A stretch of 63,980 nt of DNA, counting the filler, from Acidimicrobiia bacterium (GTDB lineage: Bacteria; Actinomycetota; Acidimicrobiia; Spongiisociales; SHLN01): the NCBI GenBank assembly GCA_041619515.1. It is 5 parts of 5 records of this genome, joined end to end, with 100 filler letters (N's around TTAATTAATTAA, not from the genome) between each part and the next. Parts side by side here need not be neighbours in the genome. Positions count along the whole stretch, not along the records: positions 31,435 to 46,023 come from JBFKDW010000074.1; 4 more parts are not named here. One strand, 5' to 3'. Positions 20,162 to 43,492 of this stretch are shown here, piece by piece. The translations under genes were made by a program, and so were the position numbers. Under the pieces are notes generated by a model. That model saw nothing but the letters and a program-made list of their open reading frames with translations. It searched no databases and had not been told where the DNA came from. The stretch's first letter is position 1; each line of letters opens with the position of its first letter.

Positions 20162-20190
20162 TTGTTATCGAACACCTGTTCGGGTAGCGT
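20162..20190 (+). promoter_or_regulatory. recA distal SigA promoter with a LexA SOS box in the spacer
   Basis: TTGTTA-17-TAGCGT with TCGAAC-acct-GTTCGG at 20168-20183. Confidence 0.8.
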
Positions 20191-20273
20191 TGCCAGCGCC
20201 TGCCGGATAGACTTACACGCCTGTAGTTCTCGCGGTGGGGGCTCGTAGCAACAGGGCTCGCAGCAAGAGATTG

Positions 20274-20295
20274 TGTCACAGCCGGCTTGTACCTT
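20274..20295 (+). promoter_or_regulatory. recA proximal RecA-NDp/PafBC-type promoter
   Basis: TGTCAC-N10-TACCTT, matching TGTC(G/A)N-N10-TANNNT. Confidence 0.72.
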
Positions 20296-20326
20296 CGGGG
20301 AGAGTCGAATCAGGAAAGGGAAACCA

Positions 20327-22456
20327 GTGGAGCAAGACAAAGCCCTCGACATGGCCGTGTCCCAGATCGAGAAGCAGTTCGGCACCGGCGCCATCATGAA
20401 GATGGGCGAGGGTGCCATACGGAATGTGAAATCGATCTCGACCGGCGCCCTCTCCCTCGATATCGCCCTCGGCATCGGCGGCGTCCCGCGGGGGCGGATC
20501 GTTGAGATATTCGGACCGGAGAGCAGCGGGAAAACCACGTTGGCTCTGCATGTCGTCGCCGAAGCCCAGCGAAATGGAGGGATCGCTGCCTTCATCGATG
20601 CCGAGCACGCCCTCGACCCGGTGTATGCCAAGGCGTTGGGGGTCGACGTCGACGAGCTGTTCATCTCCCAACCCGATACCGGCGAGCAAGCGCTCGAGAT
20701 CGCCGACATGCTCATCCGCTCGGGTGCCCTCGATGTCGTGGTGGTCGATTCGGTGGCCGCGCTCGTGCCCCGGGCCGAGATCGAAGGCGAGATGGGTCAG
20801 AGCCACGTTGGGCTCCAGGCCCGGCTCATGTCGCAGGCGCTCCGCAAGCTGGCCGGGACCATCAACCGCTCCGATACCACTGCCATCTTCATCAATCAGC
20901 TGCGCGAGAAGATTGGCGTGATGTTCGGATGTTTCCAGTATTCGACCCGCGTCACGTTGGCAGACGGGACCCAGGAGAAGATCGGCAAGATCGTCAACCA
21001 GAAGATGGACGTCGAGGTGATGGCGGTCGATCCCGAGACCGGCGACGTCGGCGCCCGCCGGGTCGTGAACTGGTTCGACAACGGCAACGCCGAGAAGTTC
21101 CTGCAATTCACCGTCTACAAGCCAGCAGGAAACGGCCGGGCACAGTTCGCGGCCACCGAGCCACACCTCGTAGCCACTCCCGGTGGCTGGCGTCCTGCCG
21201 GCGAGCTCACGGTTGGGGACAAGGTGCTCATGCCGCTGCCTTCCTATCTCTCCGAGCAACAACGCCAGCTGGTGCTCGGCGGCCTGATGGGCGATGGCTC
21301 GATTTCCACGAAGCCCGTCCACGGCGCCGGCGTGACGATGAAATCGCGGTTCCGGTTCGGCCACGGGCCCAAGCAAGACTCCTATGCCACATGGAAAGCA
21401 GATCTCCTCGAGGGGGTTCCGCTCTCGATGAGCTCTCACTCCAAGGGTGGATTGATGGTCGAGACCACTCCACTGGTGGAGCTCGATGAGCTGCGAGAGG
21501 CCGTGTACGTCGGCGGGAAGAAGGTCTTCAGCTGGGACTACCTCAAAGAGCTGACGCCCTTCGCCCTGGCCATCTGGTACATGGATGACGGCTCGTTCGC
21601 GCTGCGGCGCAACGACGGGTCGGCCGGGCGCTCGGACATCGTGGTAGAGGCAATGGAGGCTTCGTCCCGGCGGAGGCTCGTGTCACTGCTCCGTGACAGC
21701 TTCGGCTTGTCTGTGAAGCTGCAACAGCGGGCGGGCAAAGCGGTCTTCGTCTTCGACCGGGACGGGACAGAAGCTCTGCATGCGCTGATCGCACCGTATG
21801 TGCCCGAATGTATGGACTACAAGCTCTTGGCGCATCATCGGGGCAAGTATGCCGTTTCCGTGGAGCCCGGCCGGAAACGGATGAAGCTCCATGCCACCCC
21901 CATATTGGACGTGCATGTGAAGCCGTCCACGCGGAGCATGCGTCGCTTCGACATCGAGGTCGAAGGACTGCACAACTACCTCGTGGATGGAGTGATGGTG
22001 CACAACTCACCGGAAACCACCCCCGGCGGCCGGGCGCTCAAGTTCTACGCCTCCACCCGCATCGATATCCGTCGCATCGAGTCGATCAAAGACGGGTCGG
22101 ACTTCACCGGCAACCGGGTAAAGGCCAAGATCGTCAAGAACAAGGTGGCGCCGCCGTTCAAGATCGCCGAGTTCGACATCATGTTCGGGAAGGGCATCTC
22201 CCGTGAGGGCAGCCTCATCGACGTTGCCGTCGAGCACGACATCGTGCGCAAGAGCGGTGCCTGGTACACCTACGACGGTGACCAGCTCGGTCAGGGCCGG
22301 GAGAAGGCCAAAGCCTTCTTGCAGGAGAATCCGGACGTGGCCATTCAATTGCAGGCCCGGGTGCTGGAGGCGGTCGGCCTTGCCGATCCGGTCGGTGCAC
22401 CGGAGGCCGAGGCTGTGACGGATGCCGACGAGGAGCTCGAGAAGGCGGACGAATAG
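20327..22456 (+). CDS. recA: Recombinase RecA precursor containing an intein
   Basis: [32 protein letters not shown]|intein|[17 protein letters not shown] 20327. Confidence 0.98.
20930..22006 (+). mobile_element. Intein with LAGLIDADG homing endonuclease (359 aa)
   Basis: Starts [13 protein letters not shown], ends VMVHN before Ser+1; LGGLMGDGS and AIWYMDDGS motifs. Confidence 0.95.
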
Positions 22457-27301: not shown

Positions 27302-27672
27302 TCCTGGCTGTCCCGGGTGCCCTCGTCGATGAATTCGAGGCGGTTCCCGAACGGGTCGAAGGTGTGGAATCTCGTGCGCCCGGCGAGCGCCACCTCCCAT
27401 TCGACCGGATACCCTGCCGACTCGAGCAGGACGGCCAGCGCATCCGCCTCCTGCCAGCGGAACCCGGGATGGGCCTTGCGGGCGGGGGTGAACGCCTGGT
27501 CGACCCCGAGGTGCAGCTCGATATCGCCGAGGCGGAGCCACGCACCGCCCCGTGCTTGCAGCGCCGGTGGCTTGGGAATCTCTTCGAATCCGAGCAGATC
27601 GAGATAGAACGCCCTGGCTGCGGCCTCGCCGCCGGCCGGGATGGCGACCTGAACGTGATCGATTCGTTTCAG
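27298..27672 (-). CDS. VOC/glyoxalase family protein (apparent CTG start; absent from the ORF track)
   Basis: Manual translation: (L)KRIDHVQVAIPAGGEAAARAFYLDLLGFEEIPKP...KAHPGF...DPFGNRLEF, 124 aa; CTGA overlap with the lexA stop. Confidence 0.88.
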   Translation of the reverse strand: MKRIDHVQVAIPAGGEAAARAFYLDLLGFEEIPKPPALQARGGAWLRLGDIELHLGVDQAFTPARKAHPGFRWQEADALAVLLESAGYPVEWEVALAGRTRFHTFDPFGNRLEFIDEGTRDSQD

Positions 27673-28283
27673 CGAATCCCTCGCATCACGGCCACGACCT
27701 TGCCGATCAGCTCGACCCCGTCGGTGAACACCATCGGCTCGAGGGCCGGGTTCTCGGGGTGGAGGATCACGGCGCCGTCCTTGCGTTGGAGGCGCTTGAC
27801 CGTGGCTTCTTCTCCGTCGATGAGCGCCGCCACGATTTCTCCGTCGAGTGCGTCGGGCTGACGGTGGATGACCACCAGGTCGCCGTCCAGGATGCCGGCG
27901 TCGATCATGGAGTCGCCCTTCACCCGCAGCATGAAGATGGGGCCATCCCCAACCAGCTCGACCGGAAGTGGGTACACATCCTCGATGTCCTCCTCAGCCA
28001 GGATGGGTGATCCGGCGGCGATCCGGCCAACCAGAGGCACCCGGCGCACGTCGGCTGGGTGGGAGTCGTCGTCGAGCACCTCGATCGCCCGGGGCTTGGT
28101 CGGATCGCGTCGCAGATGGCCGGTGGCTTCGAGGGTGGAGAGGTGGCTGTGCACGGTCGAGGGTGAGCTCAAGCCCACAGCCTCGCCGATTTCCCGAACC
28201 GACGGCGGATAGCCCCGGTCGGCCACCGTGTCCCGGATGTAGTCGAGGATTTCCCGCTGCCGTGTCGAAATGTCTGTTCCCAC
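27669..28283 (-). CDS. lexA: SOS repressor LexA
   Basis: GYPPSVREIG wHTH, AG cleavage site (IAAG), GDSM Ser and ATVK Lys. Confidence 0.98.
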   Translation of the reverse strand: MGTDISTRQREILDYIRDTVADRGYPPSVREIGEAVGLSSPSTVHSHLSTLEATGHLRRDPTKPRAIEVLDDDSHPADVRRVPLVGRIAAGSPILAEEDIEDVYPLPVELVGDGPIFMLRVKGDSMIDAGILDGDLVVIHRQPDALDGEIVAALIDGEEATVKRLQRKDGAVILHPENPALEPMVFTDGVELIGKVVAVMRGIR

Positions 28284-28333: not shown

Positions 28334-28406
28334 ACAAACATATGTTCGACCTTGACAAATCGAACATGCGTTCGTATAGTTCGTCGCGTACCGAACGTGC
28401 GTTCGT
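28334..28406. promoter_or_regulatory. Three LexA SOS boxes and a SigA promoter in the lexA/LysM divergent region
   Basis: ACAAAC-atat-GTTCGA 28334-28349, TCGAAC-atgc-GTTCGT 28360-28375, CCGAAC-gtgc-GTTCGT 28391-28406; TTGACA(28352)-17-TATAGT(28375). Confidence 0.88.
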
Positions 28407-28427
28407 GTCACACCCACCGGATACCGT
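28406..28427 (+). promoter_or_regulatory. RecA-NDp/PafBC-type promoter upstream of the LysM gene
   Basis: TGTCAC-N10-TACCGT. Confidence 0.62.
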
Positions 28428-28477
28428 GTGGGGACGCCACTGAAAATGGCACTGGTCGAGCACGGAGGAGAAACACC

Positions 28478-28756
28478 ATGAACGTCCGATCCATCCGCCT
28501 CAGGGCGTTGGTCCTCCCTCTGGCACTGGCGTTGGTGTTTCTCCTCCTTCTCGCCCAGCAAGTCCAGGCCGGCCCTACGGCGCCACCGACCGAGCCCTAC
28601 CGGGTGGTGAGTGGAGATACCCTGTGGGACCTGGCGGGTGATCGCGCCGAGCCGGGGGAGGACGTACGCGCGGTCGTCCGGCTCATTCAACGCATCAATG
28701 ATCTCGACGGCGGTCTGATCACCCCCGGTCAGCTCATCTTGCTGCCTGCAGCCTGA
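28478..28756 (+). CDS. Membrane LysM protein, SOS cell-division inhibitor-like (YneA/ChiZ type)
   Basis: TM helix plus LysM VVSGDTLWDLA..N...ITPGQ; divergent from lexA; GGAGG RBS. Confidence 0.85.
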   Translation: MNVRSIRLRALVLPLALALVFLLLLAQQVQAGPTAPPTEPYRVVSGDTLWDLAGDRAEPGEDVRAVVRLIQRINDLDGGLITPGQLILLPAA

Positions 28757-40490: not shown

Positions 40491-41375
40491 TCAGCGGTGG
40501 CGCGGGACCGTATGCTCCCAATCGGCCAGGATCGCCCGCAGCGCCGACACGAACGCAAGCGGCTGATCGATGATGAGGTGGTGGTGGGCCTCGGGGATTG
40601 CCACGACCGGGGCGTTTCTCCCCAGCAACTCGTGCATGTAGTCGCTCACGTCCGGGGTCACGAGGTCCGACAGCTCGCCGCGGAACAGGGCGACCCGGGT
40701 GTGGATGCCGGCCAGGTACTCGTGAATGGCGGCCGGCTTGAGGCGTGGAAAGATGTTCGGATCGAACTTCCAGGTCCAGCCATCCTCCACCCGTCGCAAC
40801 GAGTGGCGGGCAATGTAGTCCATCACATAGGGGGGTCCGGGTGGCTGGTCGGGCACGAGGCGGAAATGCTCGAGGGCGGTCTCGACGTCGGCGTAGGTCT
40901 TGGGATTGCGGAACGCCCTTCCCCGGACACCCTCTTCCCGTTCAGGATCCGGGCGATTCACCGGCGAGTCGACGATGATGGCACCGCGCAGCTTCTCCCC
41001 GTGGAGGGCTGCGGTCACGATCGAGACCAGGCCTCCCATCGAATGGCCGACGAGCACAGGAGGGCTGTCGATGCCGGTGGCGGCGCATACCGCCATGATC
41101 TCCTCGGCCCAGATGTCGAAGGCGTAGTCGGACCGGCGCCCGCTATCGCCGTGGCCGGACATGTCTATCGCAACCGGGTGGTAGCGCTCGATGAACATCG
41201 GCGCCAGATGGGTCCACCAGTGTGCGTGGGCACTGCCACCGTGCACGAAGACGATCCCGGGACGGTCGCGCTCCCCCCACTCCAGGTAGTGGATGGAGAC
41301 GTCCGCCACCTCGACGGTCCCCTCCTGAATCGGCGTCTCGATCGCCCGAGAGAACCAGCCAGGCGTGTCGCTCAT
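40491..41375 (-). CDS. Alpha/beta hydrolase
   Basis: HGG..H..WW, GHSMGG nucleophile elbow, HH..DQP. Confidence 0.92.
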   Translation of the reverse strand: MSDTPGWFSRAIETPIQEGTVEVADVSIHYLEWGERDRPGIVFVHGGSAHAHWWTHLAPMFIERYHPVAIDMSGHGDSGRRSDYAFDIWAEEIMAVCAATGIDSPPVLVGHSMGGLVSIVTAALHGEKLRGAIIVDSPVNRPDPEREEGVRGRAFRNPKTYADVETALEHFRLVPDQPPGPPYVMDYIARHSLRRVEDGWTWKFDPNIFPRLKPAAIHEYLAGIHTRVALFRGELSDLVTPDVSDYMHELLGRNAPVVAIPEAHHHLIIDQPLAFVSALRAILADWEHTVPRHR

Positions 41376-42076
41376 TCGACCCTGGGCATCGTGATGGCGT
41401 CCATGTCCTGGTCGAGCGTGGCCCGCACGTGGTCGGCAACCCTGCCCCGGACGCGCCGCTTCGAGGGCCCGTAGCCGCCGGGATCGAATTTGGCCATCTC
41501 GGTGGCCTGGCTCATGACCCGCTCCATGAGCTGCTTGGCCCCGACGGCCTCGTCCAGGTAACCGGCCTCGATCGCTCCGTCGGCGTCGAACATCCGGGCG
41601 TGCAGGGTTGCCGCGGTGAACACACGCGGGTCCAGCCTGGCTCGGGCGAGCTCCACGGCAAAAACCGGCAGCGGCATGCCGATGCCGACCTCGTTCAGCC
41701 CGATCCACCAGTCACCTTCGATGCCGATCCGGTAATCGGCAGCCAGCAGCAGCATGGCGCCGGCCGCGACGGCGTGGCCCGTGCAGGCGACGAGGAACGG
41801 CCGCGGGAACTCCCACACGCGCAACAGGAGCTCGGCGCCGGATCGAACCAGGGCCCGCATGGCGCCGACATCGGACCCCATCACCCCGAGGTCGAAGCCA
41901 CCTGAGAAACGGCCCGCCCGGCCCAGCAGGACGACGGCGCCGGCCTCTTTCTCGGCACGATCGAGGGCGGCGTGCAGCGCACCGATCGAGACGTCGTTGA
42001 GCACGTTGGCCTTGCCGTCATCGAGGACGACTACGGCAACGCTGCCCTCGAGGCGATACGTGAGCACATCGGACAT
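41372..42076 (-). CDS. Enoyl-CoA hydratase/isomerase
   Basis: DDGKAN, FSGGFDL, GHAVAAG, GLNEV. Confidence 0.92.
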   Translation of the reverse strand: MSDVLTYRLEGSVAVVVLDDGKANVLNDVSIGALHAALDRAEKEAGAVVLLGRAGRFSGGFDLGVMGSDVGAMRALVRSGAELLLRVWEFPRPFLVACTGHAVAAGAMLLLAADYRIGIEGDWWIGLNEVGIGMPLPVFAVELARARLDPRVFTAATLHARMFDADGAIEAGYLDEAVGAKQLMERVMSQATEMAKFDPGGYGPSKRRVRGRVADHVRATLDQDMDAITMPRVE

Positions 42077-42138: not shown

Positions 42139-42160
42139 TGTCACACCCGGCCTGTACGTT
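42139..42160 (+). promoter_or_regulatory. RecA-NDp/PafBC-type promoter of a leaderless microprotein
   Basis: TGTCACACCCGGCCTGTACGTT, 19/22 identical to the recA proximal promoter. Confidence 0.68.
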
Positions 42161-42166
42161 GGGATC

Positions 42167-42307
42167 ATGAGAAACAACACTTCCACCATCGACCTCGCCG
42201 CCATCCAGCGCCTGCTCGCCGAGGCGGGCATCCCGGCCATCCCAGTGGAGGGCTGCGCGGACGAGCAATGCCCGTGGTGCCTGCCTTCCGGGGCAATGGC
42301 CGCCTGA
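42167..42307 (+). CDS. 46-aa Cys-motif microprotein (C-x4-CPWC)
   Basis: MRNNTSTIDLAAIQRLLAEAGIPAIPVEGCADEQCPWCLPSGAMAA; ATG 6 nt after the -10. Confidence 0.62.
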   Translation: MRNNTSTIDLAAIQRLLAEAGIPAIPVEGCADEQCPWCLPSGAMAA

Positions 42308-42355
42308 TCGCAGCCATCGGCCCCCCGGGCCGGAAGCCGGTAAGGTTCATGGGCC

Positions 42356-43492
42356 ATGTCGCTGCAACGGCCCTCTTTCACGGTAGGAATCGAGGAGGAA
42401 TACCTGCTCGTCGAGTCTGAGAGCCGCGATCTCGTGCGCGATCCTCCCGAGGAGCTGTGGGCCGACCTCACCGAGGCATTGGGCGAAGAGGTGGGGAGCG
42501 AGTTCATGCGGTCCCAGGTCGAGATTCAAACGCGGCCCTGCGCCTCCATCGCCGAGGCCCGTGAGGACCTCACCAACAAGCGGCGCACCGTATGCGAGAT
42601 CGCCGAGCGCTACGGCCTGCATTCGATCGCAGCGTCCACCCACCCCTTTGCCGACTGGGGGCAGCAGCTCCATACCGACAAGGAGCGGTACAACCTGCTC
42701 GCCCGCGACATGCAGGGCGTGGTCCGGCGCCTCCTGATCTCCGGGATGCACGTCCACGTGGGGATCGCCGATCCGGACACGCGCATCGACCTCATGAGCC
42801 AGGTCTCCTATTTCCTGCCCCACCTGCTGGCGTTGAGCACGTCGAGCCCCTTCTGGCACAGCGAGGATACGGGGCTGAAAAGCTACCGGATGAGCGTGTT
42901 CAAGGCGCTTCCCCGCACCGGGCTACCCGAACACTTCAACAGCTGGGCCGAGTACGAGCGGCATGTGAACGTGCTCGTCGAGGCCGGCATCTTCGAGGAT
43001 GCCAGCAAGGTGTGGTGGGACGTCAGGCCCAGCGCCCGCTACCCCACCCTCGAGATGCGGATCGCCGACATATGCACGACGCTCGAAGACGGTCTCGCCA
43101 TCGCTGCGGTCTATACCAGTCTCCTCAGCATGCTGTTCACGAAGCGACAGCAGAACCAACGCTGGCGCACCTACTCGAACTTCCTCATCTCCGAGAACCT
43201 GTGGCGGGCCCAGCGCTACGGCATCAACGAGCCGCTCATGGACTTCGGCATTGGCCGGCTCGTGGCCTTCCCCGAGCTGACCGAAGAGCTGATCGCGCTG
43301 CTCGCCCCCGAAGCTGCCCGCCTCGGCTGCGTTGCCGAAGTCGAGCATGTGCGGGAAATCGTCAAGCGGGGCACAAGCGCCGATCGCCAGCTGGCGGTGT
43401 ACGAAAAGGCGTTGGCCGAGGGCAACGACGGGCGGGGCGCCCTCACCAGGGTGGTCGACTTCCTCATCGAGGAAACCAAGGTCGGTCTCTGA
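42356..43492 (+). CDS. Carboxylate-amine ligase (YbdK/GCS2 family)
   Basis: TVGIEEE, GMHVHVG, SSPFW, WWDVRP...TLEMR. Confidence 0.94.
   Translation: MSLQRPSFTVGIEEEYLLVESESRDLVRDPPEELWADLTEALGEEVGSEFMRSQVEIQTRPCASIAEAREDLTNKRRTVCEIAERYGLHSIAASTHPFADWGQQLHTDKERYNLLARDMQGVVRRLLISGMHVHVGIADPDTRIDLMSQVSYFLPHLLALSTSSPFWHSEDTGLKSYRMSVFKALPRTGLPEHFNSWAEYERHVNVLVEAGIFEDASKVWWDVRPSARYPTLEMRIADICTTLEDGLAIAAVYTSLLSMLFTKRQQNQRWRTYSNFLISENLWRAQRYGINEPLMDFGIGRLVAFPELTEELIALLAPEAARLGCVAEVEHVREIVKRGTSADRQLAVYEKALAEGNDGRGALTRVVDFLIEETKVGL

Follow-up and report, generated by a model that had tools for sequence, protein, structure and literature searches.

A small gene of 46 codons lies on the plus strand of an Acidimicrobiia genome, at positions 42167-42307 of the window, by which we mean the whole stretch of 63,980 nucleotides that was analysed (contigs of this genome joined end to end). 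A 22-mer promoter motif at 42139-42160 precedes its ATG at 42167, which follows 6 nt downstream, as the initial annotation had described. Neighbouring features and one comparison site are given by position and strand:

41372..42076, minus strand: enoyl-CoA hydratase family gene, divergent neighbour (NCBIfam PRK06213)
42139..42144, plus strand: PafBC-type -26 element TGTCAC with the GTC triplet, from sequence; a start site at 42167 would place it at -28 to -23
42155..42160, plus strand: -10 element TACGTT (TA-N3-T), from sequence and locus comparison
42167..42307, plus strand: gene of the 46-aa microprotein, predicted to be leaderless with its start site at the ATG
42194..42253, plus strand: core with amphipathic helix (residues 10-19), Gly21 and an alternating hydrophobic, strand-like segment to Val27 (helix by AlphaFold2, strand by pattern)
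42254..42280, plus strand: accessory C-x4-C-x2-C cluster, missing in many members (sequence comparison)
42299..42304, plus strand: C-terminal Ala-Ala, likely ClpXP degron (conservation across the family and PMC7142297, in part)
42341..42346, plus strand: separate -10-like hexamer ahead of ybdK, outside the microprotein unit, in 7 of 7 same-genus loci
42356..43492, plus strand: YbdK-family carboxylate-amine ligase, neighbour in this genus only (NCBIfam TIGR02050)
20274..20295, plus strand: comparison site with the same promoter motif upstream of recA, on a separate contig of the window

Sources that were available in part are cited with the words "in part". Searches of the locus for an RNA family, a sigma-70 promoter and a terminator found none. 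Read-through from the microprotein promoter into ybdK may therefore occur, and the hexamer of ybdK lies 9-10 nt before the ybdK start in all seven same-genus loci. That the flanking genes are metabolic was correctly stated before; these neighbours are probably a late accident, and the pairing with ybdK was seen in this genus only.

PafBC-type promoter and regulon

The motif has the form tGTC-N12-TA-N3-T of a PafBC promoter. The published consensus reads tGTCgg(N10)tA(N3)T, with an upstream element at -28 to -23 and a GTC triplet that is read by two arginines of PafB (PMC8635444, in part); with +1 set at the ATG, the upstream element in the window falls exactly at -28 to -23. PafBC-dependent (RecA-NDp) promoters, described in the same source under sigma adaptation, thus share the triplet, the 12-nt spacing to TA-N3-T and the position of the element, and they serve the same kinds of target genes. 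They differ at positions 5-6, which are gg in the consensus and here mostly AC (50 and 46 of 59 loci), and the motif described here is known from sequence. In this 59-locus comparison the GTC was demanded by the search pattern; positions 5-10 were conserved there as well.

The likeness to the recA promoter noted initially, at 19 of 22 positions, was reproduced: there are 3 mismatches to the recA site at 20274-20295, and 0 of 100 shuffles gave any match. It is not special to recA, since the nearest site genome-wide (2 mismatches) fronts a DUF222 gene, and the motif is therefore a shared regulon motif and not a copied recA promoter. At 20327 begins recA, which is interrupted by an intein; recA and the microprotein gene lie on different contigs of the joined window.

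TGTCAC-N10-TA-N3-T occurs at 21 sites in the 3.1-Mb host genome, compared with 0-4 sites for each of 13 other spacings. With a relaxed pattern, 47 sites were found, 23 of them with a start codon 5-9 nt later, while seven control spacings yielded 8-21 sites and 0-3 starts. The motif is enriched ahead of repair genes. Twenty sites were chosen by hand and 19 downstream proteins scanned with Pfam (L273 was left out); among them were UvrA, UvrB, a RadA-like ATPase, Lhr, Hrq1, RuvC, a ComM-like ATPase and four DUF222 proteins, further DnaX, YgjP, DUF2461 and an ECF sigma factor, and four without any family. The motif is likewise found upstream of recA, adnA and a RecB-type nuclease gene. Known PafBC targets include UvrABC, AdnAB, RecA, RuvC and SigH (PMC8223512).

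Two WYL genes (pafB/pafC) sit in the Pup-proteasome locus of the genome, another feature in common with the published system. The product of the first is matched by PafB of solved structure and retains the RMFER segment with its two DNA-reading arginines; PafC was identified by its WYL domain and position only. LexA boxes (GAAC-N4-GTTC) are absent from the contig of the microprotein gene, whereas recA and lexA have such boxes, which places the gene outside the LexA (SOS) regulon. By analogy with known systems, activation by PafBC is very probable, and we predict it for this gene.

Besides repair genes, the motif leads an integrase-like gene, small DNA-binding genes of a likely mobile element and LAGLIDADG-like endonucleases, all named by inspection (L315, L316, L324 of G019; L332, L333). 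It also stands ahead of a protein of 64 aa that contains two CxxC pairs and is not matched by Pfam (L274, G000:C55:16914). Directly after pafC follows an unnamed 93-aa protein with two CxxC pairs, no Pfam match and 24 homologs (L224:2363-2641, G000:C9), which ends with Ala-Ala in close relatives. Homology of the microprotein to this Zn-ribbon gene was rejected (8.8% probability).

An unnamed family found in one order

The ORF is almost certainly a real gene. It belongs to an unnamed family of proteins of 32-87 aa, labelled hypothetical proteins of 'Acidimicrobiia bacterium', and a profile of 138 rows gave matches in 170 of 251 genomes from the host order (E<=0.01). Weak profile matches were partly inspected, and the 20 that were fetched all looked real; two unpublished genomes (G017 and G028) are among those counted, and no claim depends on either. 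A 26-row profile gave 241 clusters at 50% identity, 150 of which were listed, and after dropping 2 long false hits 148 short representatives remained. No member was found outside the host order: in a phylum sample of 301 genomes, 21 matches comprised 6 in the order and 15 out-of-class matches, rejected on inspection as PASTA or shadow frames. Inspected matches in other orders were likewise judged spurious, and duplicate and spurious loci were dropped before counting.

Six of seven other same-genus genomes retain the promoter, the ORF and a spacing of 6-7 nt between them; the seventh is 72% complete. Substitution rates (pooled pN 0.36 vs pS 0.55; pN < pS in 21 of 21 pairs) indicate purifying selection on the ORF. 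The strict motif stands 6-8 nt ahead of the start in 76 of 86 inspected loci, and the motif in some form in 81; the ten loci beyond these 76 comprise two with a CA variant, three with the motif plus a leader, one near match and four with none. Promoter motif and leaderless start are thus conserved together, and the initial proposal of an undescribed small protein with its own PafBC-type promoter is borne out by this comparison, including conservation in related genomes. In family f12, the strict motif is missing from the loci L104, L107, L162 and L163; some of these, at the least, are second copies, and their regulation may differ.

Database searches assigned no function. Pfam recognised no family among the 138 members (RecX, Pup and others unmatched), NCBIfam gave two single weak matches (E ~0.007), the best hit of a PDB sequence search was insignificant (E 0.12), and two ESM Atlas searches returned no usable match. 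Longer or fused forms of the microprotein were not found, which is weak evidence.

Conserved core and accessory cysteines

Within the profile set (138 rows), Gly21 and Val27 are conserved at 98%, the CxxC at 98-99% and the last two alanines at 99-100%. AlphaFold2 predicts a helix at residues 10-19, in agreement with the amphipathic helix annotated initially, and leaves the strand unassigned in the monomer model (mean pLDDT 76 and 79 for the models, pTM ~0.4). Foldseek at E<=0.001 and VIA at Z>=2 found no match to the monomer models. The model consists of one helix and an extended, confidently placed segment without a strand partner, which suggests that the microprotein may fold on a partner. 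Inspection of sequence and model revealed only the 10-residue amphipathic helix and no transmembrane segment, so that the transmembrane helix of membrane division inhibitors (SidA, DidA type) is missing. Resemblances of the core to UvrD motif IVa and to PASTA and glutaredoxin helix-Gly-strand turns were rejected as generic, since AdnB scored only 5 bits and came 22nd among the called proteins of the genome.

C-x3/4-C-x2-C is present in 141 of 148 short representatives. As the profile set is biased towards Cys-bearing members, the region upstream of adnA was searched in 28 profile-missed genomes. Among the 27 of these with adnA, 16 have a motif-led leaderless ORF (37-73 aa), 8 have the motif fused directly to adnA and 3 have neither. 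All 16 of these positional members end with Ala-Ala; CxxC is absent from every one of them, and 14 are free of cysteine altogether. The profile built from Cys-free members aligned to the main profile at 96% probability; in the host genome, the window protein was outside its top 8 matches. Because the positional members keep Ala-Ala yet lack CxxC, the family core is helix-Gly-strand plus the Ala-Ala end, with accessory cysteines. The C-x4-CPWC motif reported earlier is present, but metal binding is not supported as the core of the family, since CxxC or all cysteines are missing from many members. With three cysteines in the window protein, none in many members and four only in a paralog, a Cys4 zinc finger is not common to these proteins either.

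AdnA has four conserved nuclease cysteines, which are kept also in genomes with Cys-free microproteins; the idea that cysteine loss tracks them was rejected for want of correspondence. The four-Cys paralog (57-77 aa) is motif-led, lies near the RecB-type nuclease or adnA in some genomes and ends with Ala-Ala in 6 of 7 cases (L109:3022-3192, L110, L111, L121, L153:4083-4280, L154:438-635, L165:3352-3582).

A near-invariant Ala-Ala end

The C-terminal Ala-Ala, which the initial annotation overlooked along with the adnAB link, is near-invariant, at variable distance from the core. It ends the protein in 85 of 86 loci and 147 of 148 short representatives, compared with 53 of 2805 proteins called in the genome (heuristic calls). 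Since the Ala-Ala columns count towards the score of the main profile, a wholly independent test is provided by the 16 positional members only. The genome has clpX and clpP, its tmRNA tag ends in LAA, and the microprotein carries Ala-Ala as a free C-terminus, as expected of a degron substrate. In the actinobacterial sigma factor sigma-AntA, two alanines at the C-terminus have been demonstrated to act as a ClpXP signal (PMC7142297, in part), and the damage-induced RecN of E. coli is limited by ClpXP via its C-terminus (PMC10714372, in part). Judged by these systems, the Ala-Ala end is likely a ClpXP degron. The conserved Ala-Ala is what the family shares with sigma-AntA, the SsrA tag and RecN, and RecN is in addition a parallel for a damage-induced protein restricted in this way. 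The microprotein differs from these substrates in that the whole protein measures ~45 aa and has no known domain, and its degron is predicted.

Link to adnAB

In 32 of 86 loci, adnA follows the microprotein gene on the same strand, within 200 nt in 30 of them and across seven families, with a RecB-type nuclease nearby in 15; the 16 positional members are additional cases. The adnA/adnB pair shows the tandem UvrD-helicase plus PD-(D/E)XK layout, and the best PDB matches of AdnA are 7sjr_A and 6ppj_A, which we take to be mycobacterial AdnA.

In families f1, f2 and f10, the host genome included, the microprotein gene lies away from adnA. None of 30 genomes with the gene elsewhere (29 with a located member) had a microprotein gene before adnA; instead, the motif was fused to adnA in 24, stood at the nuclease gene upstream in 5 and at neither in 1. 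Where it moved, the microprotein gene kept its promoter, and adnA has its own in these 24 of 30 genomes. In an AdnA tree (without L250, L251 and L255), non-adjacent genomes fall mostly in one derived clade with support 0.93; basal support is weak and the root distant.

Five f7/f9 genomes keep adnA, and neither the region before it nor 39 further sites with motif plus ATG showed a member, so AdnAB can do without the microprotein. Eight adnA-like loci of other classes have no such gene upstream (L276, from an unpublished genome, was left out). In 30 genomes of other orders of the class, no AdnA-level homolog was found, only PcrA-level ones (E 1e-32 to 1e-42), which raises the question of how those other bacteria resect DNA ends; the microprotein family was likewise not found there. 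The restriction of the family and AdnA to one order is a single evolutionary event. The adnA neighbourhood may merely represent clustering of co-regulated genes or sharing of one promoter.

Proposed role and alternatives

The PafBC-like promoter together with the likely destruction tag makes the microprotein probably a short-lived regulator of DNA-break repair; induction followed by destruction speaks for a regulator rather than for an enzyme. As its most likely target we tentatively propose AdnAB, whose helicase-nuclease activity the protein could modulate transiently. More speculative, and rather unlikely in its full form, is a host-encoded, damage-induced and self-destructing AdnAB regulator, which would act as a timer tuning the extent and duration of end resection. 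We know of no accessory-factor family of AdnAB, and no Chi-like control is known to us for this enzyme class. Upon damage, PafBC, which is activated by single-stranded DNA (PMC11804915, in part), would fire the leaderless promoter and cause a burst of peptide. The helix-strand unit would dock on its partner, tentatively AdnAB, through strand addition. For a short time the peptide would act on this enzyme while it resects DNA breaks, until ClpXP quickly clears the peptide via its Ala-Ala end; only in some lineages would the cysteines bind a metal and so make the protein more stable. Phage lambda Gam, an inhibitor of RecBCD (PMC5218532, in part), likewise is a small protein acting on an end-resection helicase-nuclease. 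Gam is phage-encoded, in contrast to the chromosomal, host-regulated microprotein, which is unrelated in sequence and for which AdnAB binding is proposed only.

Other targets were also considered. A transient modulator of RecA filaments, standing in for a missing RecX, is doubtful. RecX (PF02631) was not found in the host genome, only 3 of 151 Acidimicrobiia genomes had weak matches, 1 of them over the cut-off, and a Corynebacterium control has RecX; recA is followed here by a gene that we take to be Rny-like. RecA itself polymerises via a helix-strand unit. However, RecX is missing class-wide, yet the microprotein family was found in one order only, and an order-specific anti-correlation with RecX was therefore rejected; moreover, no annotated locus has recA as neighbour and the microprotein shows no sequence likeness to RecA.

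The tail could also serve as a ClpXP decoy or tethering adaptor, occupying the protease or dragging a partner to it and thereby reshaping turnover during damage. This would suit an Ala-Ala end that is the most conserved feature at variable distance from the core, and other damage-linked small proteins here end in the same way, e.g. the LysM protein beside lexA. The conserved helix-Gly-strand core would be superfluous in a pure decoy, however, and no candidate cargo was identified, which makes this reading rather improbable.

Feedback inhibition of PafBC or of its complex with RNA polymerase is improbable as well. In its favour, the gene has a strongly conserved PafBC-type promoter of its own that moved along with it, but the gene was not seen beside pafBC among annotated loci, it is not homologous to the gene after pafC, and PafBC is phylum-wide (PMC8635444, in part) while the family was found in one order.

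Similarly low is the probability of a SulA-like soluble checkpoint inhibitor of division or replication that is cleared by proteolysis after repair. Small division inhibitors are under the control of WYL activators in Caulobacter (DidA; PMC4211646, in part) and Acinetobacter (AciT; PMC13010146, in part), and the microprotein shares with these small size, LexA independence and the predicted drive by a WYL activator. Unlike them, it has no transmembrane helix, shows no sequence likeness and is linked to adnAB and not to division genes, a link that a checkpoint role leaves unexplained; furthermore, the LysM protein beside lexA, which is motif-led and hydrophobic at its N-terminus, already fits the role of division inhibitor. 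DidA as a ClpXP substrate was dropped as unsupported, as the available part of PMC4211646 makes no mention of it.

Very unlikely is a function mainly as metal or redox carrier or sensor, on which the initial annotation had laid emphasis: the cysteine motif of most representatives, the four-Cys paralog and the nuclease cysteines of AdnA would be consistent with it, but most positional members have no cysteine while AdnA keeps its own in the same genomes. That the ORF is a cis-acting leader or by-product with a functionless peptide, as its frequent position 7-200 nt ahead of adnA and its loss in some lineages might suggest, is highly implausible, because ORF and promoter stay conserved ahead of unrelated or opposite-strand genes, pN lies below pS, and many families retain the residue pattern and the Ala-Ala stop.

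Novelty and further observations

A literature search on Acidimicrobiia with PafBC, AdnAB or small damage proteins, thin on subscription papers, found no description of the family; the 2018 PafBC regulon study, whose regulon table could hold a distant relative, was outside this search. We therefore describe a new protein family within a known regulon, for which the case is strong regarding gene, promoter and degron and modest regarding the target. The LexA-independent damage response of actinobacteria thereby gains a family without match in Pfam, NCBIfam, PDB or the Atlas, and the PafBC motif variant of an uncultured order is defined. Also, the limits of AdnAB resection and the restraint of recombination in a class without detectable RecX become testable questions. 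The significance is limited by the occurrence of the family in one order only and by the AdnAB target being a proposal.

The recA region (20170-22456) contains an intein with a LAGLIDADG endonuclease and, upstream, a LexA box (20170-20181) as well as the PafBC motif; recA is not followed by recX. Divergent from lexA (27672-28283), a motif-led gene at 28406-28753 also has LexA boxes; its product, a LysM protein of 92 aa, is hydrophobic at the N-terminus, ends in Ala-Ala and is likely a division inhibitor of what we take to be the ChiZ/YneA type.
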